32,000 nucleotides of DNA, taken from positions 33,157-65,156 of the forward strand of contig NZ_JBHUMM010000023.1 of the NCBI RefSeq assembly GCF_042685085.1, given 5' to 3'. Made by a program: the position numbers and the translations under genes. The notes below the pieces were generated by a model. It made no database searches and was not told where the DNA came from. It saw only the letters and a program-made list of their open reading frames with translations. The DNA comes from Marinicrinis sediminis (GTDB taxonomy: Bacteria > Bacillota > Bacilli > Paenibacillales > KCTC-33676). Below are positions 15,374 through 32,000 of this stretch, piece by piece (position 1 is the first letter of the stretch; the number at the start of each line of letters is the position of its first letter).

Positions 15374-15386
15374 CATCAGCGCTCAT

Positions 15387-15982: not shown

Positions 15983-16012
15983 ATTGTATCATAGTCGAAT
16001 AGGCGACTTCAA
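15983..16012 (-). promoter_or_regulatory. candidate sigma-A promoter for hpf with extended -10 (TTGAAG, 18 nt, TGaTACAAT)
   Basis: The minus strand reads TTGAAG-TCGCCTATTCGACTATGA-TACAAT, about 25 nt upstream of the hpf SD. Confidence 0.4.
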
Positions 16013-16261: not shown

Positions 16262-16290
16262 AAAAAAATCCCTGCCTGTGGCAGGGACTA
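16262..16290 (-). terminator. rho-independent terminator of the Kelch gene
   Basis: An 8-bp GC stem TCCCTGCC / GGCAGGGA with a 3-nt loop is followed on the minus strand by TTTTTTT. It begins 11 nt after the stop. Confidence 0.65.
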
Positions 16291-16298
16291 ATTTTTGA

Positions 16299-17726: not shown

Positions 17727-17910
17727 GTATACATCTCCTGTCAAATTTTAATCGAGTACTGGAATGAATGAGGCCGAAACTATCACTTCTTTCGGTAGTG
17801 AAAAAACCGTCGAGCATGTTTTTCATGAAGATTATGTATTTCCTTATGAACGAGTTCATTCCACCTCCTATTTCAGTATTGTGAACATAAATGTAGGGGA
17901 CAACGTCTAA

Positions 17911-17939
17911 ATAGTAAGGCAATGGTTTGGTTTTTTCAA
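17911..17939 (-). promoter_or_regulatory. candidate promoter of the Kelch gene (-35 TTGAAA, 17 nt, -10 TACTAT)
   Basis: The minus strand reads TTGAAA-AAACCAAACCATTGCCT-TACTAT. This would give a leader of about 175 nt. Confidence 0.3.
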
Positions 17940-17966
17940 GAAATTCCTTCCTTTAGTAAAGTCCAG

Positions 17967-18017
17967 AAATAAAATAAGGCTTCCCTCCTTGTCATAGCAA
18001 TGACAAGAAAGGAAGCC
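17967..18017 (-). terminator. rho-independent terminator of the cold-shock gene
   Basis: An 18-bp stem GGCTTCCTTTCTTGTCAT / ATGACAAGGAGGGAAGCC (two G-U pairs, 4-nt loop) is followed by TTATTTTATTT on the minus strand. Confidence 0.65.
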
Positions 18018-18080: not shown

Positions 18081-18278
18081 TTACAATTTTATTACGTTAG
18101 CAGCTTGAGGTCCGCGAGCGCCTTCAACGATGTCGAATTCGACTTCTTGACCTTCTTCTAATGTTTTGAAACCTTCAGATTGGATTGCGGAAAAATGAAC
18201 AAAAACGTCTCCGCCTTCTTCTGTTTCGATGAAACCGTAACCTTTTTCTGCGTTAAACCATTTCACTTTACCTTGCAT
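18081..18278 (-). CDS. cold-shock protein (CspA/CspB/CspD family, 65 aa)
   Basis: The sequence is [65 protein letters not shown]. It has the RNP1 (KGYGFI) and RNP2 (VFVHF) motifs. The track start at 18326 is over-extended. Confidence 0.95.
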
Positions 18279-18449: not shown

Positions 18450-18546
18450 TTATGCACAGATTTATCCACATTATCCACAGGTAGTTGCATCGGATTTGCA
18501 CACAATGCGGGGGTCAGTTGTCCACATCAGGTTAACTTTATCCACA
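18450..18546 (+). promoter_or_regulatory. cluster of five co-oriented DnaA boxes
   Basis: The boxes are TTATGCACA (18450-18458), TTATCCACA (18462-18470), TTATCCACA (18471-18479, directly abutting), TTGTCCACA (18518-18526) and TTATCCACA (18538-18546). Four fit TTATNCACA exactly and one has a single mismatch. Confidence 0.7.
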
Positions 18547-18576
18547 AAAAAAGACCCCTCTGTAGATAAAGGGGTC
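18546..18576 (-). terminator. rho-independent terminator ending the glycan operon
   Basis: The stem GACCCCT / AGGGGTC with a 10-nt loop is followed by TTTTTTT on the minus strand. It lies 4 nt after the aminotransferase stop. Confidence 0.7.
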
Positions 18577-18580: not shown

Positions 18581-19777
18581 CTACTTGTGATACACGAACG
18601 CTACTTTTTTAACGGCTTCAATGACATCATTTACATCCTCAGCTGTCATACCCGGGAAGATTGGAAGGGTCAGAGCGTGCTGATACCACTCTTCCGCTAC
18701 TGGACACAGTCCCCTTGCATAACCGAGTTGCTCGTAATAAGGATGCCAATACACTGGAATATAATGGACATGTACACCGATATTTTCTGCTCGCAACGCC
18801 TCGAAAAATTCTCTCCTGGAAGCTCGGAATGCCTCCGGATTCAATTGCAATGAATACAAGTGCCATGCCGATTCTGTTTCCGTCAACTGCTTGGGCACAA
18901 TGAGTCCGTCTATCTGTTCAAATGCAGTCGTATAAGCCTCGGCGATAGCTCTGCGTTGCTGAGTGAAACTGAACAGCTTTCTGAGCTGCGAGCGGCCGAG
19001 AGAAGCTTGGATATCGGTCATCCGATAATTGTAGCCCAGTTCCTGCATTTCATAGTACCAGGCACCTTCCCGGTCTATCACAGTTGCATCGCGAACGATA
19101 CCGTGAGAGCGAAAGCTTCTCAGCTGTGAAGCCACGCTTTCATCGTGAGTCGTAATCACACCGCCCTCTCCAGCGGTCACTGGCTTGACAGGATGGAAGC
19201 TGAACATCGCCATGTTGGAAGATGACCCAATTGGTTGCCCCTGATGAGACGCTCCCAAAGCATGTGCAGCATCCTCAATCAACTGCAATCCATATCTGTT
19301 TGTCAGAGCACGCAAGGCTGTGAGGTCACAGGGCTGCCCCGTAAAGTGTACCGCCATAATCGCTTTTGTGCGAGATGTAATAGCCTGCTCAACGCTAGAC
19401 GGGTCCAGATTATAGGTTTGTGGATCAATATCTGCGAATACCGGTCGGCCTCCACAATAAAGGACACAATTCGAACTGGCTGCAAAGGTAATGGGACTCG
19501 TAATGACTTCATCACCCTCTGTGATCCCCGCAACATGGCATGCGGCATGCAGCGCAGCCGTGCCGTTCGCAAAAGCGATGGCATCGCCAGCTCCCACTTC
19601 CTCGGCGACTGCTTGTTCAAATGCTTCAATTGCAGGTCCTTGTGTGAGATAGGGACTGCGCAATGTATCTACCACATGTGCGATGTCCTCCTCATCCAGC
19701 CATTGGCGTCCATATGGAAGCATGGTGCTTCGTATCGGGACACCGCCATGAATCGCCAGCGTGTTCAGATTTGTCAT
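18581..19777 (-). CDS. pseC: DegT/DnrJ/EryC1/StrS-family PLP aminotransferase, PseC-like (UDP-4-keto-6-deoxy-HexNAc 4-aminotransferase)
   Basis: The ORF has LPYGRQWLDEEDIAHVVDTLRSPYLTQGPAIEAFEQAV, FANGTAALHAA and FSFHPVKPVTAGEGG (PLP lysine). The ATG at 19777 (MTNLNTL) lies 9 nt after AGAGGA. The GTG at 19822 and the internal MLPYGRQ are alternative starts. Confidence 0.8.
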   Translation of the reverse strand: MTNLNTLAIHGGVPIRSTMLPYGRQWLDEEDIAHVVDTLRSPYLTQGPAIEAFEQAVAEEVGAGDAIAFANGTAALHAACHVAGITEGDEVITSPITFAASSNCVLYCGGRPVFADIDPQTYNLDPSSVEQAITSRTKAIMAVHFTGQPCDLTALRALTNRYGLQLIEDAAHALGASHQGQPIGSSSNMAMFSFHPVKPVTAGEGGVITTHDESVASQLRSFRSHGIVRDATVIDREGAWYYEMQELGYNYRMTDIQASLGRSQLRKLFSFTQQRRAIAEAYTTAFEQIDGLIVPKQLTETESAWHLYSLQLNPEAFRASRREFFEALRAENIGVHVHYIPVYWHPYYEQLGYARGLCPVAEEWYQHALTLPIFPGMTAEDVNDVIEAVKKVAFVYHK

Positions 19778-19814
19778 GACCAGACATCCTCTCTGTGATC
19801 CGTTCATTCCTGTT

Positions 19815-20762
19815 TCACGCACGGGTGAAACGTCTGATCCATTCTTCGGTTCTGCGAATCCCTTCGGTTAGAGGGGTTGTCGCTTCCCACCCCAGCAATT
19901 GCTTCGCTTTCTCCGGATTACAGAGCAGCTTCTGGATCTCGCTCTGTGGATGAATATGAGGAACATGCTTAATCTCGGAATGATCCTGTGCGATCAGTTG
20001 AGCGAGTTCGTTAATGGCTATGTCCTGTCCCGTTCCTGCATGTACGACCTGCCCATTTACGCGATCCGAGTATCCCGCTGAGACAACAAAGTCGGCGCAA
20101 TCTTCGACATAGAGCAGATCACGGGTCTGAGTGCCATCTCCATATATTTGTATGTCTGCACCTAACAGCTTCTGATGAACGAAAATAGAGACTACGCCAC
20201 CCTCACCGCTTGTCTTCTGATAAGGTCCATACGTATTAAAAGGTCTTACGACGACTGCAGGTAGGCCGTACGCATGAAAATAGGACAAAGTCATGCTTTC
20301 AGCGGCAATCTTGGCACCTGCGTATGGCGAAGCAGGCTTTACCGGATGTGCTTCTGTAAGGCCAGAAGCCTCGGTACAACGTTCATATACCATACAGGTA
20401 CTCATTAGAACCATTTTGGTATGATGCTTTCTACAGGCTTCCAGCACGCAGAACGTTCCGACTGTATCATTCTGAAACGTGGTCTTTGGGTCATCAATCG
20501 AATCCTGTACGTTAATCGAAGCACCTAAATGGTAGCAAATTTCAAATGAATGTTTCGCAAACAGCTCATCAATCAAAGCCTGATTTTTGATATCCCCGAT
20601 TACAACAGATTGAAGGAACGGATCTGAGCGGAATTCCTCCAAGTTTTTTTCACTGCCATTCGATAAATCATCGATGACAGATACTGCATGTCCGTCTTCC
20701 AGGAGTTTCTTCACGACCCATCTGCCGATAAAACCGGCTCCACCTGTCACTAATACACGCAT
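19815..20762 (-). CDS. NAD-dependent epimerase/dehydratase (extended SDR, GalE/RmlB-like)
   Basis: The ORF has MRVLVTGGAGFIGRWVVKKLL (GxxGxxG), a YAGAK catalytic YxxxK and YGDGTQTRDLLYVEDCA. The ATG at 20762 lies 6 nt after GGAAAGGGGA. Confidence 0.85.
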   Translation of the reverse strand: MRVLVTGGAGFIGRWVVKKLLEDGHAVSVIDDLSNGSEKNLEEFRSDPFLQSVVIGDIKNQALIDELFAKHSFEICYHLGASINVQDSIDDPKTTFQNDTVGTFCVLEACRKHHTKMVLMSTCMVYERCTEASGLTEAHPVKPASPYAGAKIAAESMTLSYFHAYGLPAVVVRPFNTYGPYQKTSGEGGVVSIFVHQKLLGADIQIYGDGTQTRDLLYVEDCADFVVSAGYSDRVNGQVVHAGTGQDIAINELAQLIAQDHSEIKHVPHIHPQSEIQKLLCNPEKAKQLLGWEATTPLTEGIRRTEEWIRRFTRA

Positions 20763-20814
20763 AGACAATCCCCTTTCCTGGTAATCAGTATAACGCGTCC
20801 GAAAGGCCTGTGCA

Positions 20815-21618
20815 CTAGAACGCTTTTACTAGCGGAGGTTGCTGGACAGGCAATTCGCCATCTAAAAATCGATCTACCATATCATTTTGAAAGGTGTTGT
20901 AGATCACTCGCAAATGTTGCGGGTGCCAATCGGCAGAGGTAAAAAGCTTGCCAGCCGATTTCTGTGGGATCGCAGATATCACATGTCCCGATCTGATTCG
21001 TTGCACAATTTCAATCAAATCCGCTACGACCTGGACCACGGCACGACATGCCACATCATGAATCCCGTCCCCGTACCTCAGATCCGGAACGGAATGATGA
21101 ATGATATCTCCCCCATCCAGCTTGTGGGTCAACTGATGGATCGTCATTCCTGCCCAGTTGGGTTTCAGGAAGTAGAATGGCCAAAACAGCGTCGTATTGC
21201 CCCTGTACCACGGAGATAATCCGCCATGAATATTCCATGAAATCGGGGGGAGCTTTGCCAGCAAGGGAGCGTGAAGCATATGTACGCCATAAGTAAGTAC
21301 CATGTCGGGTTGCTGCTCCGTCACCCAGTTTTGAACGGCTTCCGTATTGAGTGTTTCAGGACGACAGCGAAAAACTGACAGAGCATGCCCTTCTTCGTCA
21401 ATGGATGGATCGGGAAACCAGGCCTTTTCTGTTTCTTCTCGCTCCTGAAAATGACGGATAAAATTTTGACGATCCTGCTCATGTAAATCATTTGGCGGCT
21501 GTGGAAGCATCGCCTCTCTTTCTTCCACTAACAGCGCATGCAGCAAACCGGCAGAAATCAGCTGATTGGCCACATATCGGTGACGAGGATGGGAACCTGT
21601 CATCAAAAGTACCTTCAT
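20815..21618 (-). CDS. formyltransferase-family protein (Fmt/PurN-like N-terminal domain)
   Basis: The 267-aa ORF has DMVLTYGVHMLHAPLL...WNIHGGLSPWYRGNTTLFWP...HQLTHKLDGGDII. This corresponds to the N..H..(S/G)L(L/S)P.YRG...D catalytic layout of N10-formyl-THF transferases. Its ATGA overlaps the stop of the upstream gene. Confidence 0.7.
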   Translation of the reverse strand: MKVLLMTGSHPRHRYVANQLISAGLLHALLVEEREAMLPQPPNDLHEQDRQNFIRHFQEREETEKAWFPDPSIDEEGHALSVFRCRPETLNTEAVQNWVTEQQPDMVLTYGVHMLHAPLLAKLPPISWNIHGGLSPWYRGNTTLFWPFYFLKPNWAGMTIHQLTHKLDGGDIIHHSVPDLRYGDGIHDVACRAVVQVVADLIEIVQRIRSGHVISAIPQKSAGKLFTSADWHPQHLRVIYNTFQNDMVDRFLDGELPVQQPPLVKAF

Positions 21619-23021
21619 ATCTCAAATGGCTCCATTCGATTGGAATAGGGGCCTTTTAACAGACCCTTCTCGATCAGCAAGTGGATAACCGGTTGCAGAT
21701 CATAGATGTTACCATGACTCTGGCACTTTTCAGCTATTTCCTGCAGGTTATGCTGTCCGTCCGCATAATTCAATATCGTCAATATACGATTTAGCTGCTT
21801 TCTTCCATCTACCAATTGATTGTTGGATTGCCTCAGTATTCCGTTTTGGTTCATATCCGGATACAAGCCATAACGGTCCAGCTTCACCTCGCCATAAGGA
21901 GATTGATTGACGTAATAACCATCCAGTTCCAGTCCCAGAAGAAGGTGCTCTATTTCGTCCGCACTCTTCACTAATGCGTCCATTGTCATTACTTCCTTCG
22001 TGTCTGCGGAGCTATGATATTCCGGAAAACTTGCATGCAGCATACGTGAAATTTGCCCTACTGGCAAGTTGAAACCAGGAGAGTTATATTGCCTTTCGTC
22101 AGATCCATAGTTTGGCGTAAACGGTCTCGTTCGATTTGGGGAGGCTTCAGAGGCAAACAAATGATGCCAGAGCAGGTCAAGTGGGGAATGACCCTGACGA
22201 GACTGCTTATAGCTTAATGGCTCTTGTCCGCCCAAACAGGTCAGGATCATTCCGGCATGCATCCTTGCTTTTAAACCTTTTCCAAACTGATGCAGATAGG
22301 CAATAGAGCCGATCGTCTCAGGTGCGAAAACAAATCGATACGTAAATCTCCGCTTTTGCCATCTGGACAGGCGTTGATACAGCATGGCCGCCGTAATAGG
22401 GCCGCTCAGTTCATTATTTGCCATGGATGGATGGCAAAGATAGGAGCTGATCAGAATTTCTTCCTCGCACTCCCCAGGAAGGATTGCATGTGCATAATTC
22501 ATTTCACCTTCCACGAGCTCACTATCGATATGGGCATGATAACGTCCTGGTTTTAATTGATCATAGATGTCCTGTGTAAGACAAAATCCCCATCTCTCTT
22601 TGTAATAAGACGTGACATAGGGGATAGAATTCGGAAGGACAGGGTTTGTATACAGATGGGATTTTAATTCATCCAAAGTAAAATATCCATCTACCGGAAT
22701 GCTATAGTTCAAAACATGCAGATTATGAGTGTCAAAGTCTGCAATGACTCGTCCTTGCGGATCGGTCAGAGTGGCTGATCGAATGCGCCATTCTTTCGGA
22801 ACCTCCCAGTCAAATAGACGGGTCCCGCTCGCAACCGAAAAATGCTCCAGTGGCATCCATTCCGATAAAATGTCCAGGGACTGTCTTAATCCAGGGCCCG
22901 TAATACTCCTGCAAATGGGGAAGAGACGATCAAATAATTGCTCGATCTGCCACCGTTCCTGCTGCTTGTGGGAAGACGAAGTCAGGTCAATTCGATCTTG
23001 TTCTATAGATGGCCTTTGCAT
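21615..23021 (-). CDS. aminopeptidase-like (M28-fold) domain protein of the DUF2172/DUF4910 type with a C-terminal winged-helix-like tail
   Basis: The 468-aa ORF has LFPICRSITGPGLRQSLDIL, WEVPKEW, SSYLCHPSMANNELSGP and FVFAPETIGSIAYL. This pattern is as I recall it for the COG4310 'polysaccharide biosynthesis protein with aminopeptidase-like domain' family. Confidence 0.65.
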   Translation of the reverse strand: MQRPSIEQDRIDLTSSSHKQQERWQIEQLFDRLFPICRSITGPGLRQSLDILSEWMPLEHFSVASGTRLFDWEVPKEWRIRSATLTDPQGRVIADFDTHNLHVLNYSIPVDGYFTLDELKSHLYTNPVLPNSIPYVTSYYKERWGFCLTQDIYDQLKPGRYHAHIDSELVEGEMNYAHAILPGECEEEILISSYLCHPSMANNELSGPITAAMLYQRLSRWQKRRFTYRFVFAPETIGSIAYLHQFGKGLKARMHAGMILTCLGGQEPLSYKQSRQGHSPLDLLWHHLFASEASPNRTRPFTPNYGSDERQYNSPGFNLPVGQISRMLHASFPEYHSSADTKEVMTMDALVKSADEIEHLLLGLELDGYYVNQSPYGEVKLDRYGLYPDMNQNGILRQSNNQLVDGRKQLNRILTILNYADGQHNLQEIAEKCQSHGNIYDLQPVIHLLIEKGLLKGPYSNRMEPFEI

Positions 23022-23066
23022 GGTCTACCCCCATTTCATTAACTTGATATCTGGTAAGCTGAAAAC

Positions 23067-24125
23067 TCAGGTGTCAAATAAATCCCACGATACTGGTGTG
23101 CCTTTCGATAAACGCTTAGGTACTCGTCTGCCCAGTAGCTCTTCCATATATTTTGGAGCCAGACCCGCTCCCGGGCGGATGGCTCTCACGTGATCCTTGC
23201 TCAGTATTTCACCGGCTTCAATGTCTTGCACGATATATAAGGACCTGCGATGCTTAAGGGCATTCTGCTCCGCTTCAGTAGGCCCGTAATAAATATTTCC
23301 CTTGCTCTGCCATGCTCGCTTCGTCTCCTGAACAAGCGCGCTCATCTCCGAAGGCTCCATGGAAAACTCGGCATCTACCCCGCCATCAGCACGAGAAAGG
23401 GTGAAGTGCTTCTCAATGACGGTGGCACCCAGCATCACACTGCCGACTGCCGTACCGATGCCCATTGTATGGTCAGACAATCCCACCTGACATTGAAAGA
23501 GTGCTTTCATATGAGGGAGGGTCATCAAATTCGAATGTTCAGGTGATGCCGGATAGGTGCTCGTACATTTCAGCAATACAAATTGGGTACAGCCCTGTTC
23601 ACGCAGTGCCCGGACCGTTTCGTCCAGTTCCGCTACTGTCGCCATGCCGGTTGAAACAATAACTGGCTTTCCGGTTTGTGCCACTTTGCGGATTAAAGGC
23701 AAGTCTGTATTCTCGAACGAGGCAATTTTATAGCATGGCACATCAAGGGATTCCAGGAAATCGACCGCGGTATCATCAAATGGGGTACTAAAAGGCACGA
23801 TTCCCAGCTCTAGACACCGATTGAAAATGGGCTCATGCCACTCCCAAGGCGTGTACGCTCTCTGGTACAGATTGTACAGCGATTCACCTTTCCACAAATT
23901 CTGAGGATCCTCAATAAAAAAATCACCCTCATTGATATCCAATGTCATAGTGTCGGCTGTATAGGTCTGGAGCTTCAATGCGTGTACACCAGCAGCGGCT
24001 GCAGCCTCCACGATTTTCAGTGCCCGCTCCAATGAATGGTTGTGATTGCCCGACATTTCTGCAATAATAAACGGCTCATGGCTCTCGCCCACTTTATGGT
24101 CACCAATGGTTATGGTACGATTCAT
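23067..24125 (-). CDS. pseI: pseudaminic acid synthase (NeuB family with C-terminal SAF domain)
   Basis: The ORF has PFIIAEMSGNHNHSLERALKIVEAAAAAGVHALKLQTYTADTMTL, LWKGESLYNLYQRAYTPWEWH, YKIASFE, LLKCTSTYPA, GLSDHT and IEKHFTL. It is collinear with Campylobacter PseI as I recall it. Confidence 0.88.
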   Translation of the reverse strand: MNRTITIGDHKVGESHEPFIIAEMSGNHNHSLERALKIVEAAAAAGVHALKLQTYTADTMTLDINEGDFFIEDPQNLWKGESLYNLYQRAYTPWEWHEPIFNRCLELGIVPFSTPFDDTAVDFLESLDVPCYKIASFENTDLPLIRKVAQTGKPVIVSTGMATVAELDETVRALREQGCTQFVLLKCTSTYPASPEHSNLMTLPHMKALFQCQVGLSDHTMGIGTAVGSVMLGATVIEKHFTLSRADGGVDAEFSMEPSEMSALVQETKRAWQSKGNIYYGPTEAEQNALKHRRSLYIVQDIEAGEILSKDHVRAIRPGAGLAPKYMEELLGRRVPKRLSKGTPVSWDLFDT

Positions 24126-25219
24126 GGCTCCAACCCTCCGCTCAATATTTCTGTCACTTTATTCTGAGTACGTACGTGGTTACTATCCATCATATCCATA
24201 CCCTTGTTCCGCATGTCCTCTCTCAACTCTCGATCCGTCATCAATCGATGCAGAGATGCAGTCACATCTTCAGAAGTCACAGACGCATGCCATCCCAGAG
24301 AGTGGATACCCCCCTGCTTCGCTGCAGCTTGTACGGATTCCACTTGATTGTCGGCCGTTACGGTAATCAGCGAAGGGAGTCCAAGATAACAGCGTTCCCA
24401 CATCGCCACTCCTCCTGCGCCCAATGCCAGATGAGAGCTTGCCATGAAACGAGCCAATTGATTCGTTTGACAGATGTAGCTGGTGTTTAGCATCAATTTG
24501 CATCTGGTTTCGATCGTGCCTCTTGCTGGATTAGACGTCCCTGTCACCACTTGAACATGGAGCCGTGGTTGATCCTGGGCGACTTTCTCCACCGCATCCA
24601 GTGCTTTCATGGTTTCTCCAGTTGGATCACTGCCTCCGTAAAACACCAGCAAACGAAACGCATCTGAATCTGATCGCGTGACATCATGAAGTTTCAATTC
24701 TTTTCTCGCTTCGAAAAATTCCTTCCTTAATAACACAAAGCCGGGGCCCAGCAACTGCATACAATGTTCAGGTACAAGTGCCTGGTAACGGTGATCGGCA
24801 TTCTGATGCAAGTTCTGATCCAAAAGCAAGTCACAATCATGCTTCCGGTTAGCCAGATCATCGATTACCATGATTTTTTTCGTGAACTTTCGCATCTCAA
24901 GTTCCCATACGATATCCAGCTGATAATGATCCACGACCAACCAGTCCCATTGATTGAAGCTGTCCGGCCTCCGTCTTTCCTGCATCAGGCGAGCGGTATG
25001 GACTGCATCAGATAGTGGATCAGAGACGGCTGGCATACTGGCGACTTCAAAGCCTTGTGATTCGAGCCAATCCATCATATGACCTGGCACACGCTGACAA
25101 ATAAATAGCACCCTGGCCTCCGGCATTTTGCGAAGCACATCTTGTGCAAGTGCAGCACATCGCATCACATGTCCTGAACCTATATTTACAGAAGCATCCG
25201 TACGTATAGCCATCTGCAT
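24122..25219 (-). CDS. pseG: PseG-like UDP-2,4-diacetamido-2,4,6-trideoxy-hexose hydrolase (GT-B fold, SpsG-like)
   Basis: The ORF begins MQMAIRTDASVNIGSGHVMRCAALAQ (hallmark RxDxxxxIGxGHxMRC) and has a later GGSDPTG motif. The ATG at 25219 is 1 nt after the upstream stop, and the 3' ATGA overlaps pseI. Confidence 0.75.
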   Translation of the reverse strand: MQMAIRTDASVNIGSGHVMRCAALAQDVLRKMPEARVLFICQRVPGHMMDWLESQGFEVASMPAVSDPLSDAVHTARLMQERRRPDSFNQWDWLVVDHYQLDIVWELEMRKFTKKIMVIDDLANRKHDCDLLLDQNLHQNADHRYQALVPEHCMQLLGPGFVLLRKEFFEARKELKLHDVTRSDSDAFRLLVFYGGSDPTGETMKALDAVEKVAQDQPRLHVQVVTGTSNPARGTIETRCKLMLNTSYICQTNQLARFMASSHLALGAGGVAMWERCYLGLPSLITVTADNQVESVQAAAKQGGIHSLGWHASVTSEDVTASLHRLMTDRELREDMRNKGMDMMDSNHVRTQNKVTEILSGGLEP

Positions 25220-25220
25220 G

Positions 25221-25955
25221 TCAACAGACCGGCTTTTGCTGAATATGGGCATTCAAGCGAGCGACCTCAGGATGTTCCAGCAAATATTGTACAATCTGAG
25301 CAGAAGGAACTTGAACAATATCCGGAATATGTTGAGCCAACGTCTGGCACAATTGATAATCTTCCACGGTATCGACGGTCATTCTCAGATGAGGATGATG
25401 AAGAACGTCCGGCACATGCACGTATGCGAGTTTGAACTGCTCTGGATGCTCATAGGCATAGTAGGTGACGTGTTCACGATGACGGGCTTCCGTCCCCCGT
25501 TCATGTACGGCGAGCAATGCCGAATAACGCATCACTTCCACAGCCAACCCTCGGGGCAGATCGCGATCAAGTGAGATGAGATCCGCGTCTGTATGTGCGA
25601 GTACGCCCATCATTTTGTTGGCTAGCTGAACATCAAGAAATGGACAATCTGCGGTTACCCGTATCACCCAATTTGGTTGATACAACTCCGCACACGCCGC
25701 ATATCTGGACAACACGTCTTCTTCCGAGCCACGAAAACAGGCCACCTGATTCATCTGGCACCACGACGATATCGCATCATCGGCAGGCAATACAGAAGTG
25801 GCCAAGATAACTGCGTCCCCATTTATTTGTCTGCATCGCTGAACCACATGGTCAAGGATGCTGGTTTGACCAAGGGACTTTAGTACTTTGCCCGGCAATC
25901 TTGAAGAGCCCATTCTGGCTTGTATAATAATCAACTTATCTACGCTCTTTTCCAT
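25221..25955 (-). CDS. nonulosonate cytidylyltransferase, SpsF/PseF-like (CTP_transf_3 family)
   Basis: The ORF begins MEKSVDKLIIIQARMGSSRLPGKVLKSLG (P-loop-like RxGSxRLPGK) and contains RVTADCP. The ATG at 25955 lies behind GGAGAAAGGGTGAGGG. The track start at 26021 overlaps the LuxC-like gene. Confidence 0.8.
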   Translation of the reverse strand: MEKSVDKLIIIQARMGSSRLPGKVLKSLGQTSILDHVVQRCRQINGDAVILATSVLPADDAISSWCQMNQVACFRGSEEDVLSRYAACAELYQPNWVIRVTADCPFLDVQLANKMMGVLAHTDADLISLDRDLPRGLAVEVMRYSALLAVHERGTEARHREHVTYYAYEHPEQFKLAYVHVPDVLHHPHLRMTVDTVEDYQLCQTLAQHIPDIVQVPSAQIVQYLLEHPEVARLNAHIQQKPVC

Positions 25956-25965
25956 AAGCAAGCCC

Positions 25966-27237
25966 TCACCCTTTCTCCACTGTGATCCAGCGAACAAATC
26001 GGTCCAGTACCAGCATGCCATCCCATGGCAATTGATAATGATGGGCTTTGCCGACGGGTACGATCCGACTCACTCCTTGAAAACGGACACTGTCCAGCAA
26101 TCGCAGCATATCCTCTTCCTCCAGTTTGTGAGAAATTGTCTGTATGGAAGGAGGCAGAACGTGTCCAATTTCACTCATGTCCTTACTGGGATATACATGT
26201 AAAATATGCAAGCCCTCACCTGTTAGCGGCTCTAACCGGTCGTGGAAATGCAACGTCCATTCCGCTCCTTCGGAGACAAGCAACCGCTCCCCCTTCAGCC
26301 ATGCTCGCGTCCGATAATGAACCACCTTCATCGTTTCCCCGGCATCGAAAGGCTGGGACACATGGCTGCGTAACGGTTTCTGTAAGGCTTCAGCCAGTCG
26401 CCCCCCAGCATCCAGAGAAACTTGTTTGTCTCCTTTTACAATCAAGGCATGCGGAGACGAGCACGCCAACTGATTAAATAACAGCATATCTTGAGCAATC
26501 CTAGTCCAGTCTGCTGTATCCATTTGTGCAGGATCGATTACCGCACAGCTGTATTTGGGTCCGAATATCAATGTTTCACTCTCTGGCTTTCCCGGCAGAG
26601 AGGATACAGCATGCACAGCTTCCCTGCCTCCCCAAGCTACACGCACGTCGCATTGAGCGGCTACCTGTTGATTCCATATCGTATCCTTTCCAGGATAGGA
26701 GACGACCATAACAGACTCTGACATGACTTGTCCGGCTTGTCCGCACTTCGAAAGCTCAGCAAGAAAAGGGCTGATATAATCGATTTGTCTGCTGCTTAAT
26801 TTCACAATCGAGTGATTTTTCGTGAGTATTGCCTGGATAACAGAGATAAGACTTAACAGAGGGACATTTCCAGCCATCCAGTGACCGATCATGCCTCTGG
26901 GAACGGCGGTAACGCTCATCCCCGTCAAGTCCACCACCTGATCAAGCACCTGCTCGTGACGCAGACCTCGTTTCAAGAAACTTCGCAAAGAATCCGGGTG
27001 GATAAAGGTTAATAAATAGGCCAGGCCCACATGGCGAAGTTGACGATGGACGGGATGTTTGGGAGATGCCAAGCGCTGATAAAGCGTGTAGAAAGCTTCG
27101 ACCATGTCGTTGAACTTCAGGTGCCGCACTTGACGCGGTTGCTGTCCAAAATGCTGAAGCCGCTGCTTGAATTCCTCATCGGACAGGGGTTGTTCCTGCT
27201 GCGTTCGCCCCTCTATAAAATGAATGGCATTTACCAT
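25966..27237 (-). CDS. LuxC-family acyl-CoA/acyl-protein reductase (aldehyde-forming)
   Basis: The 423-aa ORF has GHWMAGNVPLLSLISVIQAILTKN and FNQLACSSPHALIV (the position of the acylated Cys in LuxC). It overlaps the upstream gene at ATGGTAA. Confidence 0.78.
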   Translation of the reverse strand: MVNAIHFIEGRTQQEQPLSDEEFKQRLQHFGQQPRQVRHLKFNDMVEAFYTLYQRLASPKHPVHRQLRHVGLAYLLTFIHPDSLRSFLKRGLRHEQVLDQVVDLTGMSVTAVPRGMIGHWMAGNVPLLSLISVIQAILTKNHSIVKLSSRQIDYISPFLAELSKCGQAGQVMSESVMVVSYPGKDTIWNQQVAAQCDVRVAWGGREAVHAVSSLPGKPESETLIFGPKYSCAVIDPAQMDTADWTRIAQDMLLFNQLACSSPHALIVKGDKQVSLDAGGRLAEALQKPLRSHVSQPFDAGETMKVVHYRTRAWLKGERLLVSEGAEWTLHFHDRLEPLTGEGLHILHVYPSKDMSEIGHVLPPSIQTISHKLEEEDMLRLLDSVRFQGVSRIVPVGKAHHYQLPWDGMLVLDRFVRWITVEKG

Positions 27238-28046
27238 CCCAGCGTCACCCCTTCCACGGTTTCAAACGGCCATACAGGTGGAGGTTCCCATGCTTCAGCC
27301 TGTTTGGACAGCGGCTTATACAAGGGAGTCCACATCTCGGTTTGTGCCGGATTCTTTTCTGTCATTTTTCCACTGATTCCCTCACGGGTTCTGGCCATAT
27401 AATGAAAGGTCTTCTCATTGAGCTGCACTGCTTCTGCCATGAAATCTTCAACGGGAGAAAGCAGCCATTGACTCTCTGTGAACCAATAGTGCCTTTCCTG
27501 GCCTTTCATATAATGATATCTTCTTGGAGAAGCGAGGAACCGCCAAGCTTCATAAATAGAAGGATAGTCTGAGTTTGAACAGGAGGTTTGCTGGTCCGCC
27601 AGGCTTGGAGATAGGCTTAGCCTCTCCTCTCCTCTGGCATTTCCGTTCGTTTGTGCCGCCTGATAAGTTCCGAAAGGCTGCCATCCCAGTAATCGCTTCA
27701 CTGGTCCCATTTTGTTATTTGCAAACGCCATTACGGCATCCAGTTTGGCTTCATCTCGTGCCCAATGCAAAGCGTGCTCCAACATGTCAGCTATAAATGG
27801 AAGGGTCGTCCTTTCCGGATGAAAGATCCCGTCCACAGCGAAGGCTACCCTTGCTTTCGGCTTGAAAGGCATTTCAATCATGGCATAGTGAGCATAGAGG
27901 ACCCCTTCTTCTTCGGCCACCCAGCTCATTTGGACCGGCGCCTGTTTCTTCCATTGAAACAAGGATGGATCAAACTGAAGTCCCCGTGCCTCATATAAGG
28001 TCCGAACTCCCTCTATATCATTTGGCATGTAGCTTCGTATCTGCAC
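27231..28046 (-). CDS. hypothetical protein, N-terminal half GNAT-like acyltransferase fold
   Basis: The 271-aa ORF has a GTG start 7 nt after GGAGGAG, located inside the 3' end of the LuxE-like gene (29-nt overlap). Residues 1-130 (IRSYMPNDIEGVRTLY...WVAEEEGVLYAHYAMIEMPF...FAVDGIFHPE...AFANNKMGPVKRLLGW) show GNAT-like beta/alpha spacing, but I see no clean Q/RxxGxG/A motif. I cannot assign the C-terminal half. Confidence 0.5.
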   Translation of the reverse strand: MQIRSYMPNDIEGVRTLYEARGLQFDPSLFQWKKQAPVQMSWVAEEEGVLYAHYAMIEMPFKPKARVAFAVDGIFHPERTTLPFIADMLEHALHWARDEAKLDAVMAFANNKMGPVKRLLGWQPFGTYQAAQTNGNARGEERLSLSPSLADQQTSCSNSDYPSIYEAWRFLASPRRYHYMKGQERHYWFTESQWLLSPVEDFMAEAVQLNEKTFHYMARTREGISGKMTEKNPAQTEMWTPLYKPLSKQAEAWEPPPVWPFETVEGVTLGW

Positions 28047-29154
28047 CCATTATCTCCTCCGCATACACATCCCCGCATCCGCGTGCCTCAGCCTTTGGCG
28101 CCCGGCCTTTAAATCGGAATGCTTTTCCCTTCCTTCCACATGGGCACTCATCGGTCCCCACCCATTCCCCGAGATCATCGGTCAGTACCGAAAAGTTAGG
28201 GGAAGAAAGCGGCAGCAACGAAATGAGCTGAATGAGTCCCGTTTCCCCGACTGGCAATGGTTTCAATGTGTGAGGGGCCCTGATGATGACATCAGCAAAG
28301 TAAGGAACATGTTTATTTCCTGCTGAACAATCCGGATACACGACGCCCGTTTGTTCTACTAATCCATAGAAATCAATGACCTGAGAAGGTTCAATGCCCC
28401 AAAACTGAGAGATTTGCTGGTTAAATGTTTCTTTGTGCACACGCATATGCTCCAGGCGTTTCCAGCCTCCGCTATGAATCAGAAACGTTTGGGAATCAAA
28501 GCCCTTCTGCGCCTCATACAATGTCATCAACTGCTCATGGGCCTGATGAAGCAGATAGGTAAATCCATAGGCGATGAATTGTCCCGCTTCTCTGGCTGCT
28601 TGCAGAGCCTGCTCGAATCGCTCTGGATTGAGTCTCAGCTCACCGTGTATGTCATCCATAACAAAATGAAATTCCGATGCATAACCCATTAAGGACATGA
28701 TCGCAGCTCCTCGAGCGGACATTACCTGCTTGCCACGTGCAGTTTGCATGGTATCAAAGATAATATAAGGTCTGCGTTCCACGCCTATATGATCATTCCA
28801 AATGGCCTGCAACGATTGACGTTGTCTGGCAGAGGTTCTCTCATCGATGAAAACCTGTGAGGGAACACCTGAGGAAGTGCTGCTGGACTGTACCGTCTTC
28901 ATTTTCACATCTTTATTCGCAGCGGTTTTTAATTCAAATTCCTTAAAGATGGATGTCGGCAGAAAAGGAAGGTCCGTCAATGCTGCATATTGTCCGTCTC
29001 GGGCCTGAGCCTCTACCAAATGACGGTACGGTTTGCAATGCTGGACATGCCACTGAAGCAAATGCCGAAATTCCTTCAACAGATAGGTTTCTTTCTCGGC
29101 CTGTTCCATTTCGTAAGGCCTGACTTGTTCCATCAAGCAATCATGTATAGACAT
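28018..29154 (-). CDS. LuxE-family acyl-protein synthetase (adenylate-forming)
   Basis: The ORF is collinear with Photorhabdus/Vibrio LuxE as I recall it. Shared stretches are LLKEFRHLLQWHVQHCKPYRHL, LPFLPTSIFKEF, SSSTSSGVPSQV, LIHSGGWKRL, HVPYFADVIIRAPHTLKPLPVGETGLIQLISL and SVLTDDLG. TAAATG junction to the upstream Fe-ADH-like gene. Confidence 0.85.
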   Translation of the reverse strand: MSIHDCLMEQVRPYEMEQAEKETYLLKEFRHLLQWHVQHCKPYRHLVEAQARDGQYAALTDLPFLPTSIFKEFELKTAANKDVKMKTVQSSSTSSGVPSQVFIDERTSARQRQSLQAIWNDHIGVERRPYIIFDTMQTARGKQVMSARGAAIMSLMGYASEFHFVMDDIHGELRLNPERFEQALQAAREAGQFIAYGFTYLLHQAHEQLMTLYEAQKGFDSQTFLIHSGGWKRLEHMRVHKETFNQQISQFWGIEPSQVIDFYGLVEQTGVVYPDCSAGNKHVPYFADVIIRAPHTLKPLPVGETGLIQLISLLPLSSPNFSVLTDDLGEWVGTDECPCGRKGKAFRFKGRAPKAEARGCGDVYAEEIMGADTKLHAK

Positions 29155-30255
29155 TTATATCTGATCCTCTCCGGTAAACCACCATGTCTGCAGCCATGTG
29201 TCTAGCTCTTGTCTGGATATGTACGCAGCATTTGTACGGAAGCATGGGTCCAATTGAATACGCTTGAGCATCTCCTCGCGATTCATTTGCATCTGATCAA
29301 CAGGCCGAAAGGTTCCGACTGTCTGCTTGGTTTTTTCCTCCAGCCAGGCTATCCCCTCTATGGCATCCTCAAATCCACACGCCTGCCAAATGGAATGAAA
29401 TTTCTCCTCCGCCTTCGTCATATGAAAGCGTGTCACGCTTGCGATGATTCGACCACATGCTTCTCCATGCCATTGCTTTCGATGTTCAACCTGATGCGCA
29501 AGGGCATGAATCAATCCCGCAGAAGCCACACTTTGCGCCTTTCCAGCCAGCACACTATTCCACTGTAAGTCCGAACTTGCCGATTGCTTACTTTCCGGAG
29601 CAGGTTCCAATCTTGTGCTGGTCAGTTTATCCACGTGTTCTTTGCAATTTCTGATAGCATCCAGTGACAATCGCTTGCTGGCCGGCGTAGCCAGAGGAGA
29701 CACATAGGACTCCAGTGCATGGGTGAATACATCCCATATCCCGTTCCACAATACCCGATCAGGAGCAGTTGCCACGATCTGCTCATCGAGCAGCACTTCA
29801 TTTGGCAGTAAAGAAGCATGATGCAGCGGAACTTTTTGACCATCAATGGTCAGTACAGCCGTCTCACTGACTTCGCTGCCGCTTCCTGCCGTACTTGGAA
29901 TGGCGGTTAACCGATACGGATGACTTTCATTATATGTGATCCATTTTCGCTTCCTTAACTGCGCCTTGCCCGCTTCATCCAAACGACCCAGTCTAACGGC
30001 CAGCTTGGCTAAATCAAGCACCTTGCCGCCGCCAAATGCTATGATCCATTTGCTTCGATTCTGGTACACCCATTCCTGAAGGGCTACCAAGGTGTCCCAA
30101 TCTGCAGAATCAACAAGAAAACAGGATCGTTTAGCTAATACTGGATATTGATGCTGTAAGGAAGGCGAGGTAATCCATATCGCTTCTTCTACTCTCATCA
30201 TTTCCACCACGACGTCTTTCACCTGGCGGATACGAGGCCATTGAATCATCGACAT
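29155..30255 (-). CDS. iron-containing (group III) alcohol dehydrogenase / DHQS-like oxidoreductase
   Basis: The ORF has WIIAFGGGKVLDLAKLAV (GGGSxxDxAK-type NAD site), PSTAGSGSEVS, DVFTHALESY and LIHALAHQVEH...HGEA (metal His cluster). The ATG at 30255 lies 9 nt after GGAGAGGAG and 4 nt after the ligase stop. The track start at 30369 is over-extended. Confidence 0.75.
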   Translation of the reverse strand: MSMIQWPRIRQVKDVVVEMMRVEEAIWITSPSLQHQYPVLAKRSCFLVDSADWDTLVALQEWVYQNRSKWIIAFGGGKVLDLAKLAVRLGRLDEAGKAQLRKRKWITYNESHPYRLTAIPSTAGSGSEVSETAVLTIDGQKVPLHHASLLPNEVLLDEQIVATAPDRVLWNGIWDVFTHALESYVSPLATPASKRLSLDAIRNCKEHVDKLTSTRLEPAPESKQSASSDLQWNSVLAGKAQSVASAGLIHALAHQVEHRKQWHGEACGRIIASVTRFHMTKAEEKFHSIWQACGFEDAIEGIAWLEEKTKQTVGTFRPVDQMQMNREEMLKRIQLDPCFRTNAAYISRQELDTWLQTWWFTGEDQI

Positions 30256-30259
30256 TTCT

Positions 30260-31720
30260 TTATTCTCCTCTCCATCGACTTCGAGCTTCGAGGCGTTTCG
30301 GTTTACCGCTGTCGGTAAGGGGGATGGCATCCCATGCTTGTATGGTTTTCGGAATTTTATATATTTCAAGCTGCTGTTTACAGTGTTTTTTCATTTCTAC
30401 TTCCAGCTTTGCTGTCCAGATTACGCCCTCTTTTAGGACAACTGCGGATACGACTTTCTCGTGTGTCATGTTGTCCGGGACAGCAAATACAATGCACGCC
30501 TGAATAAGAGGATGCATAAGCAGGACTTTCTCTACTTCCGCGGGTGCCACTTTTAAGCCATCTACGTTTATTTGCTCTTTCAATCTGCCGCTCACGTACA
30601 AGAAACCGTCTTCATCCATCCATCCAATATCCCCTGTCGCAAACCAACCATCTGAGAGAAAGCTGTCTGCATGATTCAGGTAGCCCATCATGAGATTGCG
30701 TCCGTTCACCTGTATTTCAGAGGTTGTCGCATCCAGTCGAACGGCAACTCCCTCGGGTGCCTGGCCTGCGCTCGACAGCTTGTCAGGAAAATCCCTGTAG
30801 GAGATATAGGTGGTTCGGCTCGCCTCTGTCAGACCGTAGTACATATAGATCCGGGTATGAGGCAATACCTCCAACAGCTCCTGTACAACTTCTTCCTCGA
30901 TCGGCGCGGTATTAATGATGATGTAGGACAAATGACGGCAGGTTTCTATAAATTCCTGTTTATACATAGACAGCAGCACTTTAATCAAGGCTGGTGTTGC
31001 AGGCATACCTGTGGCCCGCATGTTTTTAATCCGTTGAAGCATATGCGAGATATGTTGGGCAGATTCGTGGAGTATGATCTGCGCACCGAGCAACACATAG
31101 CTGTGAATGTGACCTAATCCAAACGAATGGGTCAGCCTTAACACGGTCAATTCCCGATCATCTCTGTTCATGCCAGACCACTCAATGATTCTCTCAGCTG
31201 TGAACAGGATGGAAGAATGGGAAAGCATCACCCCTTTAGGAGCTCCGGTTGTGCCACTGGTATACATAATTAGAGCGGGGTGATTCTGGTTGTCTCCCTC
31301 CTGAGTTGATGCATCTTCATCCCATGAAATATCCCTGTATACTTTATTGGAAGGAAAAACAGCTGTGGAGACTGCTGAATCTTCAACAAGTTGCTTTCTT
31401 GCGCTGTGCAAAATCAATTTGGGCTGCGCATCTGCCACGATTTGCACCAAAACGCGTGGTCGGCAATCGAGATCTACTGGAATCACGGTAAGACCTAAAC
31501 ACCAGCTTGCAAAATACGCAAGGAGATACTCCAACTCATTTCCAAAACATAACACTACCCTGTCTCCGCGTGACAAGCTAAATGTCTGTTTCAGATAGGT
31601 CGCTGCACGCCGCACTTCATCGCTGAACTGCCCATAGCTGATGTCTTCTCCCTCAAGCGCAATGAAAGGGGCATCCGGCTGATTCTGTGCCTGTTCCACC
31701 AGCTTGTGCCAAATGGTCAT
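30260..31720 (-). CDS. ANL-superfamily adenylate-forming ligase (acyl/aminoacyl-carrier-protein ligase type)
   Basis: The 486-aa ORF has IMYTSGTTGAPKGVMLSH (A3), YYGLTE (A5), WFATGDIG (A7), GRLKEQINVDGLKVAPAEVE (A8) and PLTDSGKPKR (A10 Lys). Its start overlaps the ACP stop (TAATG). Confidence 0.9.
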   Translation of the reverse strand: MTIWHKLVEQAQNQPDAPFIALEGEDISYGQFSDEVRRAATYLKQTFSLSRGDRVVLCFGNELEYLLAYFASWCLGLTVIPVDLDCRPRVLVQIVADAQPKLILHSARKQLVEDSAVSTAVFPSNKVYRDISWDEDASTQEGDNQNHPALIMYTSGTTGAPKGVMLSHSSILFTAERIIEWSGMNRDDRELTVLRLTHSFGLGHIHSYVLLGAQIILHESAQHISHMLQRIKNMRATGMPATPALIKVLLSMYKQEFIETCRHLSYIIINTAPIEEEVVQELLEVLPHTRIYMYYGLTEASRTTYISYRDFPDKLSSAGQAPEGVAVRLDATTSEIQVNGRNLMMGYLNHADSFLSDGWFATGDIGWMDEDGFLYVSGRLKEQINVDGLKVAPAEVEKVLLMHPLIQACIVFAVPDNMTHEKVVSAVVLKEGVIWTAKLEVEMKKHCKQQLEIYKIPKTIQAWDAIPLTDSGKPKRLEARSRWRGE

Positions 31721-31968
31721 TAGATCTCCACACCTTTGGAGCGTAGGTACGCTTTGATATCCCCAATAGTGTGTATGCGAGTCACTTCTTCTACACTCAT
31801 ATGATGATGAAAGGTCTGATGAAGTGCAACCGCCATGGAAACGGTGGCCAGACTATCCCAACCTTCAATTTCCTCGGGACCATTGTCGTCCTTGTATTCT
31901 TCTTCTTCCATTAGAAATATATCCATTAAAAGCTGCTTAAGCTGTTCATCGGCTGTCAACTTGTCCAT
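31720..31968 (-). CDS. acyl carrier protein (stand-alone, DltC-like size)
   Basis: The 82-aa ORF has IEGWDSLATVSMAVAL, the DSL phosphopantetheine-attachment serine at the start of helix 2. The SD AGGAGGAAAGG lies 5 nt upstream. Confidence 0.85.
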   Translation of the reverse strand: MDKLTADEQLKQLLMDIFLMEEEEYKDDNGPEEIEGWDSLATVSMAVALHQTFHHHMSVEEVTRIHTIGDIKAYLRSKGVEI

Positions 31969-32000
31969 TTATTCCTTTCCTCCTGTAAGACCATATGGTT
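31969..32000 (-). CDS. 3' end of a further upstream gene of the operon (only ~10 codons visible)
   Basis: One minus-strand frame is open from the window edge (...PYGLTGGKE) and ends at the TAA at 31971-31969, immediately abutting the ACP ATG (TAAATG). This is the same coupling style as the rest of the operon. It is too short to identify. Confidence 0.25.
   Translation of the reverse strand, partial: PYGLTGGKE

Follow-up and report, generated by a model that had tools for sequence, protein, structure and literature searches.

The DNA considered here is a stretch of 32,000 nucleotides from Marinicrinis sediminis, a marine member of the Paenibacillaceae (contig NZ_JBHUMM010000023.1, positions 33,157 to 65,156); we refer to the whole of it as the window and count positions from its first letter. 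Its right-hand part, 18581-32000, holds 13 complete open reading frames (ORFs) together with the 3' end of one more, the 14th; every one of them lies on the minus strand, as does every other feature of the window located below. Five proteins of the region are identical to annotated proteins of M. sediminis. It seems largely right to regard this region as the promoter-distal portion of a longer operon. The operon is most probably a flagellin glycosylation island of the Bacillales for pseudaminic acid (Pse), a sialic-acid-like sugar, that uses the Pen/Pal route, and as such it is nothing categorically new. Besides genes of the core pathway it contains two modules, a six-gene acyl cassette (31968-25966) and a pair consisting of a DUF4910 gene and a formyltransferase-like gene (23021-20815). 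We think it likely that its product is a CMP-activated Pse with N-substituents other than acetyl.

The core enzymes are recognised by profile searches. The last gene of the operon (18581-19807) encodes PseC, the UDP-4-amino-4,6-dideoxy-N-acetyl-beta-L-altrosamine transaminase, of about 408 aa. It scores 487.4 bits with the NCBIfam equivalog TIGR03588 (cut-off 423.5) and 255.5 bits with the LegC-family model, under the cut-off of 420; with this and with neighbours that are flagellar and housekeeping genes, the operon falls outside the Leg-type sps (spore crust) pathway of B. subtilis. The Pse synthase PseI (23067-24125, 352 aa) reaches 487.1 bits with TIGR03586 (cut-off 340.25) and 294.3 bits with the rival NeuB_NnaB model, which is under the cut-off of 399.65; an identical database entry from Marinicrinis sediminis bears the name pseudaminic acid synthase. 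PseG, the UDP-2,4-diacetamido-2,4,6-trideoxy-beta-L-altropyranose hydrolase (24122-25219, 365 aa from the ATG at 25219), scores 269.1 bits with TIGR03590 (cut-off 153.55). A NeuB/NeuC-type pathway, named in the sequence-only reading of this DNA (an earlier annotation made from the letters alone) as the outcome that would overturn it, did not emerge as the source of the best homologues in the profile search: the Pse models pass and NeuB stays below its cut-off.

Next to PseC lies a gene (19815-20762, 315 aa from the ATG at 20762) for a second short-chain dehydrogenase/reductase (SDR). Over residues 3-313 its product matches the structure of Pal from B. thuringiensis (PDB 6bwl) with 455.7 bits (E=7e-136), the next structure giving 167 bits, and this match identifies it with the tested role of the second SDR, that of 5,6-ene reductase/5-epimerase. 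According to the summaries in PMC7439481 and PMC5109656, Pen and Pal of B. thuringiensis jointly replace PseB in making UDP-4-keto-6-deoxy-L-AltNAc. Since the SDR beside PseC is a Pal ortholog, the operon would follow this Bacillus-type Pen/Pal route. The last core gene (25221-25955, 244 aa from the ATG at 25955) encodes a cytidylyltransferase of the SpsF/CTP_transf_3 type (102 bits), whose best PDB match is 6oew, 'cytidylyltransferase', and which has only weak KdsB-type matches among NCBIfam models. It lies directly upstream of PseG in four related loci and is 51-56% identical to its counterparts in loci L050, L051 and L055. We infer that it is the CMP-Pse (CMP-nonulosonate) synthetase.

With PseC, PseI, PseG and Pal, four of the seven enzymes, membership of the Bacillus-type CMP-Pse pathway holds as judged by homology. 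No protein of the window matches the PseH model TIGR03585, and the sole GNAT present belongs to a different, rare family; in relatives, Pen and PseH lie upstream of the point that matches the window end. The core set proposed by the sequence-only reading (PseC, PseG, PseI and a cytidylyltransferase) thus stands for the first three, which pass equivalog cut-offs, and for the domain of the fourth, a match to the PseF equivalog being absent. The same reading had put all remaining genes down as tailoring or unknown functions. One of them, 19815-20762, turns out to be the core enzyme Pal; the rest do look like tailoring genes, and they form two recurrent modules, not a miscellany.

The first of these modules encodes, in order of transcription, an acyl carrier protein (ACP), a ligase, an iron-type alcohol dehydrogenase (Fe-ADH), LuxE, a GNAT and LuxC. 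The ACP (31720-31968, 82 aa; Pfam PP-binding 22.9 bits, cut-off 20.8) has the phosphopantetheine serine motif DSL within GWDSLATV, matches NCBIfam ACP models only under their cut-offs, and is 59-74% identical to ACPs at the equivalent position in L050, L051 and L055. The class I adenylate-forming ligase (30260-31720, 486 aa; AMP-binding 206 bits, plus AMP-binding_C) contains the motif YTSGTTGAPKG and presumably loads a carboxylic acid onto the ACP. Its closest relatives, 51-53% identical, are found in Paenibacillus vini, P. forsythiae, P. sp. MSJ-34 and one JGI metagenome, always within this cassette. Scanning of genome contigs with the ligase returned only AMP-ligases at most 30% identical to it, in unrelated contexts; a match from Bacillus pseudomycoides (37% identity) was discarded as a paralog sitting in a nonribosomal peptide synthetase cluster. 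The Fe-ADH (29155-30255, 366 aa from the ATG at 30255; Pfam Fe-ADH 59 bits, ADH_Fe_C 54 bits) stays under every NCBIfam equivalog cut-off. It is 40% identical to the syntenic genes of L050 and L051 and 26-30% identical to the Fe-ADH genes of the L056 and L057 cassettes, and it is absent in L055.

The LuxE-type acyl-protein synthetase (28018-29154, 378 aa; Pfam LuxE 209 bits) and the LuxC-type acyl-thioester reductase (25966-27237, 423 aa; Pfam LuxC 202 bits) match chains E and A of the LuxC-LuxE complex PDB 7xc6 (7xc6_E, E=1e-19; 7xc6_A, E=9e-21). The C-terminal Cys of the former (ARGCG) aligns with the Cys of the LuxE tail, and the Cys in NQLACSSP of the latter with that of DQQAC in LuxC; these cysteines of LuxE and LuxC are their acylation sites. 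With the NCBIfam luminescence equivalog, LuxE scores 86.2 bits, about 6-fold below the cut-off of 550, and it is therefore not a luminescence enzyme; LuxC scores 95.6 bits with its luminescence model, about 8-fold below the cut-off of 750. No ORF for LuxD or LuxAB was found in the window, which places the set outside the luminescence LuxCDE systems.

Between LuxE and LuxC lies a gene (27231-28046) for a divergent GNAT-fold protein of 271 aa. Taken by itself, its sequence matches nothing in Pfam, NCBIfam or the PDB, and a word-indexed homolog search returned only the query. An exhaustive search of 1.84 billion representative proteins found 16 relatives at E<=1e-3, and Acetyltransf_9 is matched by 8 of the 16 family members. 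In Foldseek, its AlphaFold model (pLDDT 80.9, pTM 0.81) comes closest to tandem GNATs of the Eis-like kind, and the N-terminal half resembles the N-acyl amino-acid synthase FeeM. FeeM draws its acyl group from acyl-ACP. Presumably the protein is an acyl-ACP-dependent N-acyltransferase. It is 34-37% identical to its syntenic homologs by BLASTP and 36-42% identical in a MAFFT alignment. Residues D10, L17, W32 and W168 are invariant in the family, and a C-terminal EGVTLGW motif is invariant in its close members.

Across the window, the Paenibacillus loci and L055 the proteins of the cassette are 34-74% identical. The set of ACP, ligase, Fe-ADH, LuxE and LuxC also occurs in other surface-glycan loci, beside acyltransferases that differ: a hexapeptide protein in L057, a FemAB-like protein in L056 and a PseH-like GNAT in L060. 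Because the set recurs with different acyltransferases, its logic appears to be the building of an acyl group on a carrier protein followed by its placement on an amino sugar. A minimal trio was seen in L054, from a Zixibacteria metagenome-assembled genome (9756-12554): an ACP, a ligase 40% identical to that of the window and a 365-aa Acetyltransf_9-like protein, within a Wzx/Wzy polysaccharide locus that has a DegT aminotransferase. The trio suggests that an ACP-ligase-GNAT core can function without LuxE and LuxC.

The second module begins with a gene (21615-23021, 468 aa) for a metallopeptidase-like protein with DUF4910, DUF2172 and HTH_47 domains (Pfam 279, 118 and 45 bits). Over its full length it belongs to the CA_C2195 family (PDB 3k9t, 309 bits). 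The gene that follows (20815-21618, 267 aa) encodes a formyltransferase-like protein (Formyl_trans_N 35.5 bits, cut-off 26.1) with the motifs NIHGGLSPWYRG and LDGGDI. Its weak PDB matches are to the formyltransferase domain of ArnA and to chains of 6ci2, which bear the deposition name 'formyltransferase PseJ'. The enzyme PseJ adds a formyl group to a sugar in a Pse pathway. A scan of metagenomes with the DUF4910 protein gave 80 loci. Wherever identity was at least 53% and enough downstream sequence was available, the formyltransferase-like gene lay directly downstream (9 of 9 loci); genes of the Pse pathway were present at all nine, and the ligase, LuxE and LuxC too at four. Among more distant loci (41-47% identity) the pair was kept in just 4 of 46, so the pairing is confined to a subclade of the DUF4910 family. 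Gene neighbourhood ties the CA_C2195 family to modified-sugar loci with NeuB-type synthases, SpsF, Maf and ACP, and the authors of the structure suggested a role as amidase or transacylase (PMC4000134). Their supplement lists formyltransferase-like proteins of 265-268 aa as neighbours of DUF4910 genes in four distant phyla (PMC4000134). Given this list of neighbours and the strict adjacency in the nine loci, we regard the pair as a real module. The simplest prediction for it, weaker than what we propose for the cassette, would be a formylated nitrogen on Pse.

Each module recurs elsewhere, and nearly everything is combined in the metagenomic loci L060 and L063. In L060 (contig ERZ1673779 NODE-2) the genes for ligase, LuxE, LuxC, PseH-like GNAT, cytidylyltransferase, DUF4910 protein, formyltransferase, PseG, PseI and PseC are found together. 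A gene for a DUF2920 protein (11458-12570) comes after PseC there. DUF2920 proteins also populate Campylobacter's locus for flagellin glycosylation.

What is the sugar for? The relatives provide the best indications. The loci that carry the 51-53% identical ligases are colinear with the window. In P. forsythiae the island starts with FliT, Maf (Maf_flag10_N plus MptE-like), Pen (6bwc 373.9 bits; 337.7 with the PseB model, below its cut-off of 407.75), methyltransferase and GT2 genes, and PseH (TIGR03585 104 bits, cut-off 93). It goes on with ACP, ligase, Fe-ADH, LuxE, a GNAT-like protein, LuxC, cytidylyltransferase, PseG, a methyltransferase, PseI, Pal, PseC and a GT2, and is followed by a cold-shock gene, Hpf and SecA. 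In the window PseC is followed by the terminator, a cold-shock gene, a Kelch protein gene, Hpf, SecA and PrfB. The flank PseC-Csp-Hpf-SecA being common to both, the window operon would occupy the same chromosomal slot as the P. forsythiae island. The metagenome locus L055 has the same block, ending in PseC-Csp. P. vini also has it, with the gene for the flagellin lysine-N-methylase FliB (L139 17409-18641, 289 bits, cut-off 85) directly after PseC, then the cold-shock gene and Hpf. Given this position of FliB, the flagellin of P. vini may be both glycosylated and lysine-methylated.

The sequence-only reading had left the choice between flagellin and a spore-surface glycan. An island with FliT and Maf and the same downstream flank, together with FliB in P. 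vini, clearly favours flagellin, as far as gene neighbourhood in other species can tell, and transfer to it would be carried out by a Maf encoded upstream, as inferred from synteny only. The competing suggestion is that the same biosynthetic operon serves the spore-surface layer, an S-layer protein or another envelope polymer. The related sps genes of B. subtilis do serve a spore-crust nonulosonate (PMC7439481), the window holds neither Maf nor flagellin gene, and the region upstream in P. vini consists of many GT2/TPR, WbsX and pyruvyl-transferase genes, with no Maf within 10 kb. However, the Csp-Hpf-SecA slot is the one that in P. forsythiae ends an island with FliT and Maf at its other end, FliB adjoins the block in P. 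vini itself, and the cassette also occurs in proven flagellin glycosylation islands of Aeromonas. A destination other than flagellin therefore appears unlikely to us.

The genes of the operon are tightly packed. Start codons were chosen with the help of ribosome-binding sites and of the lengths and N-termini of syntenic homologs. In the direction of transcription, the TAA of the 14th ORF abuts the ATG of the ACP (gap 0), ACP and ligase overlap by 1 nt (TAATG), ligase and Fe-ADH are 4 nt apart (ATG at 30255), and Fe-ADH and LuxE have no gap. LuxE and the GNAT overlap by 29 nt, the latter starting with the GTG at 28046; this start and the overlap are real, for the N-terminus MQIRSY aligns with MKIRSY in the Paenibacillus homologs. 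The GNAT and LuxC overlap by 7 nt (ATGGTAA), and gaps of 10 nt and 1 nt separate LuxC from the cytidylyltransferase and the latter from PseG. There follow an ATGA overlap between PseG and PseI, 45 nt between PseI and the DUF4910 gene, another ATGA overlap between DUF4910 and the formyltransferase-like gene, 52 nt before Pal (46 nt with a TTG start at 20768) and, between Pal and PseC, a gap of 7 nt or an overlap of 8 nt. The description in the sequence-only reading of at least 13 genes on one strand, joined by overlaps, agrees with this; its maximum gap of 46 nt does not, since one gap is probably 52 nt, a trivial difference.

An intrinsic terminator, the only one which that reading had assigned, does end the operon at 18546-18576. 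It has a nine-pair stem rich in G+C (GACCCCTTT...AGAGGGGTC) followed by TTTTTTT. Terminator-like matches number 18 in total, within the shuffle expectation of 13.8 +/- 3.9; the others, inside the operon, are unconvincing, having short stems, lying in coding sequence and lacking a clean T-run. Promoter-like matches (24) are below the shuffle mean of 27.9, and a candidate in the gap between the formyltransferase-like gene and Pal (20814-20787, 9 of 12 positions matching) was rejected as indistinguishable from chance. Rfam and tRNA scans of the window found nothing. The open frame previously noticed at the right edge is there too: it is the 3' end of an upstream gene of the same operon (31969-32000, 10 codons plus TAA, the stop being at 31969-31971), ending in PYGLTGGKE directly before the ACP start. 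PseH genes occupy this position, just upstream of the ACP, in relatives. The 10 residues of the tail have no recognisable similarity to the variable PseH C-termini of the relatives.

Downstream of the terminator the window continues, still on the minus strand, with a cold-shock gene, a Kelch/FN3 protein gene, hpf, secA, prfB, a gene for a YitT-like membrane protein and the arg genes. The cold-shock gene (18081-18277) has a near-consensus promoter at 18361-18333 (TTGACA-17-TATATT, extended TG) and a terminator that is a 19-pair hairpin (18018-17977). Because P. forsythiae, P. vini and L055 likewise have it after their Pse operons, we consider it a stable boundary marker of the island. The Kelch gene, between the cold-shock gene and hpf, encodes a secreted 481-aa protein (16299-17744) with five Kelch repeats and an FN3 domain, and lies in a stretch of low GC content (37-43%, flanks about 50%; composition 15000-18000). 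Its slot is empty in P. forsythiae and taken by a Methyltransf_21 gene in P. vini, and for this reason it looks inserted. With the Pfam model NANM (N-acetylneuraminate epimerase) the protein scores 84 bits, above the cut-off of 45, and a link with nonulosonate binding or mutarotation is possible. Upstream of the listed prfB ORF (11565-12557) there is, at 12600-12625, a classical programmed +1 frameshift site of RF2, AGGGGGTCTCTTTGAC, i.e. a Shine-Dalgarno-like AGGGGG and then CUU UGA C; the listed ORF hence begins at an internal Met. The arginine biosynthesis set (2167-10570) is complete and in one orientation, with argC, argJ, argB, argD, argF and then argG and argH, and is ordinary housekeeping.

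How might the product be made? For the core route, family membership is established, and the steps would be as follows. Pen, encoded outside the window, and Pal would make UDP-4-keto-6-deoxy-L-AltNAc from UDP-GlcNAc, and PseC would aminate C4. After N-acylation PseG would remove UDP, PseI would condense the product with phosphoenolpyruvate, and the SpsF-type cytidylyltransferase would yield the CMP-sugar. For the cassette we rely on analogy with V. cholerae O1 and the scheme put forward there for the 3-deoxy-L-glycero-tetronate (2,4-dihydroxybutanoyl) group of perosamine. The ligase would charge the ACP with a small acid, probably a dicarboxylic one. LuxE and LuxC would then reduce a carboxyl group to an aldehyde, the Fe-ADH would reduce the aldehyde to an alcohol, and the embedded GNAT would pass the hydroxyacyl group so formed from the carrier protein to one of the sugar's amino groups. 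With less assurance, the formyltransferase-like enzyme may formylate an amino group, assisted by the DUF4910 protein, possibly as amidase or transacylase. If this is correct, the N-substituent would be a short hydroxyacyl group of the tetronate type and/or a formyl group, and not a lipid. A non-standard Pse derivative, as claimed in the sequence-only reading, is a reasonable expectation.

A different use of the cassette has to be weighed here. ACP, ligase, LuxE and LuxC might yield a long-chain fatty aldehyde, alcohol or acyl group and hence a lipidated 'liposugar' flagellin glycan, or their target might be a different sugar of the chain, in which case the Pse5Ac7Ac would stay plain. LuxC and LuxE are, after all, homologous to the fatty-acid reductase of luminescence, among NCBIfam models the ligase best matches a 'long-chain-fatty-acid-CoA ligase' subfamily, relatives have PseH alongside the cassette, and incorporation of lipid has been proposed by the authors of PMC7874193 and PMC4875605. 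Yet the scores with luminescence and long-chain equivalogs are far under the cut-offs (96 against 750, 86 against 550 and 272 against 476), and neither LuxD nor a luciferase nor a gene for elongation by fatty-acid synthase is present. The cassette is accompanied by an Fe-type alcohol dehydrogenase and a soluble GNAT, and the only such cassette with a known product, that of V. cholerae O1, makes a C4 dihydroxy acid. Moreover, flagellin of Aeromonas AH-3 carries a 376.14-Da Pse derivative and its glycan ends in an unexplained 102-Da unit (PMC7874193); neither value (376 Da, 102 Da) leaves room for a lipid. On balance we give this suggestion little chance. Weaker still is the idea that the nonulosonate is legionaminic acid or another stereoisomer: it can point to SpsC, SpsG and SpsE of B. 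subtilis, PseC/PseG/PseI-like enzymes that produce legionaminic acid (PMC7439481), and to the SpsF-like cytidylyltransferase, but is very improbable considering that PseC, PseI and PseG beat the Pse equivalog cut-offs with the LegC-family and NeuB models under theirs, that Pal is the ortholog of an enzyme from a pathway which, as cited in PMC7439481 and PMC5109656, gives CMP-Pse in B. thuringiensis, and that no NeuC/LegG-type 2-epimerase is present.

Several observations weigh against the derivative that we prefer, a Pse with non-acetyl N-substituents. The Paenibacillus and Aeromonas loci have a canonical PseH in addition to the cassette, and for this reason the acyl acceptor could be N7, N5 after de-acetylation, a hydroxyl group or another sugar of the chain. 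Given that L055 does without Fe-ADH and that a FabG-type reductase takes its place in Aeromonas, different lineages may make different acyl products. In the NCBIfam profile search the cytidylyltransferase had no PseF equivalog match, and inside the window there is no gene for PseB/Pen, PseH, Maf or flagellin. The Sps enzymes of B. subtilis mean that the names of profile models do not wholly fix stereochemistry. The parallel with V. cholerae is one of domain content and order taken from published annotation, not of sequence comparison. Finally, replacing an acetyl group of Pse5Ac7Ac by C4H6O3 gives, by our own arithmetic, 316.127 - 42.011 + 102.032 = 376.148 Da, compatible with the 376.14 Da of Aeromonas but a coincidence of composition, since other formulas fit, e.g. 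O-methyl-glyceroyl.

A bolder suggestion can be made, which we hold only tentatively and consider doubtful in its full form. The 'fatty-acid' genes of such islands, from Proteobacteria to Paenibacillaceae, may have nothing to do with lipids and be a portable tetronate-like module, in which a carrier-bound dicarboxylate, e.g. malate, is reduced by LuxE/LuxC and an alcohol dehydrogenase, and a dedicated acyltransferase, in the window the GNAT from a family of only about 16 representatives, then passes the acyl group to a nonulosonate nitrogen. With the DUF4910 protein acting as the long-sought de-N-acetylase or transacylase, the result in M. sediminis would be Pse carrying formyl and 2,4-dihydroxybutanoyl groups, with a residue mass of 362.13 Da. 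In the literature searched, such a Pse was not described for any Gram-positive flagellin. A full-text search found no paper joining 'tetronic' and 'pseudaminic', and a 2026 paper on Pse in Clostridium makes no mention of the cassette, formyl groups or DUF4910.

Flagellin glycosylation islands for Pse are well known, those of Bacillales included, and the operon itself is unsurprising. What gives it value is that it unites, in compact and tightly coupled form, two recurrent, biochemically uncharacterised tailoring modules. The parallel with the tetronate genes of V. cholerae O1 offers a testable alternative to the 'fatty acid synthesis' label of the ACP/ligase/LuxE/LuxC cassette. For the DUF4910 family a crystal structure has been available since 2009, but no function, and the strict pairing with a formyltransferase-like gene in Pse clusters narrows the search for one. 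Two hypotheses can now be tested: that the cassette makes a short hydroxyacyl group, not a lipid, and that the DUF4910 protein and the formyltransferase form a functional unit. With the activities of the modules defined, it would become easier to deduce nonulosonate structures from genome sequences and to prepare modified Pse donors with enzymes. The operon, compact and translationally coupled as it is, would lend itself to reconstitution in a heterologous host.

We know other systems with which this operon can be compared. B. thuringiensis makes CMP-Pse with seven enzymes (Pen, Pal, aminotransferase, acetyltransferase, hydrolase, synthase, cytidylyltransferase), of which PseC, PseG, PseI and Pal are common to the window. 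The type IV flagellin glycosylation islands of Geobacillus have pen at their 5' end and pal close to their 3' end (PMC5109656); Pal is likewise at the 3' end, beside PseC, in the window, and Pen at the 5' end in P. forsythiae. In contrast to both, the window has eight extra interleaved genes, the six of the cassette and the DUF4910/formyltransferase pair, and a cytidylyltransferase that does not match the PseF equivalog. CA_C2195 of Clostridium acetobutylicum (PDB 3k9t) has the same three-domain architecture as the DUF4910 protein and a neighbourhood with a NeuB-type synthase, SpsF-type nucleotidyltransferase, Maf, ACP and acetyltransferases, whereas in the window the DUF4910 gene is translationally coupled to a 267-aa formyltransferase-like gene. 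The LuxCDE proteins of luminous bacteria share the folds of LuxC and LuxE and the conserved aligned cysteines. The window, however, lacks LuxD and luciferase, and the context is glycan biosynthesis; judged by these features and by its scores, the cassette is not the fatty-acid reductase of luminescence.

The group II islands of Aeromonas have the order pseH-ACP-FabG-ligase-luxE-luxC, with the cassette directly downstream of pseH (PMC7874193). In these and in enterobacterial islands the authors presumed the genes to be concerned with fatty acids or lipids (PMC7874193, PMC4875605). As in the window, the cassette is embedded among pse genes in these islands of Aeromonas and Enterobacteriaceae, and glycosyltransferases follow. 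They differ in having an SDR of FabG type instead of Fe-ADH and PseB instead of Pen/Pal, in lacking an embedded GNAT, and in that no DUF4910/formyltransferase pair has been described in them. The other parallel is with V. cholerae O1. In PMC3441752, PMC9915646 and PMC9201469, VC0248-VC0252 (wbeK-O / rfbK-O) are assigned to 3-deoxy-L-glycero-tetronate, the N-acyl group of perosamine, with VC0249 as ATP-binding ligase, VC0250 as iron alcohol dehydrogenase and VC0252 as acetyltransferase. There is likeness in the components, in an order that is nearly the same and in the position of both within a surface-glycan locus beside an amino-sugar pathway. All six components of the tetronate type, i.e. 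carrier protein, ligase, iron alcohol dehydrogenase, LuxE, LuxC and acyltransferase, are found in the window block, by Pfam for the family members and by fold for the GNAT. Morona et al. are said to have identified VC0248 as an ACP in 1995 and to have proposed malate as the precursor of the tetronate. In V. cholerae LuxE and LuxC are fused into one protein of 825 aa and the acceptor is GDP-perosamine, whereas in the window they are separate and flank the rare GNAT, and a Pse precursor is the presumed acceptor; an 825-aa Vibrio fusion did not appear among the 65 matches of our LuxC search. V. cholerae O1 is the sole system we found that has this set of domains and a known product, and that product is a C4 dihydroxy acid.

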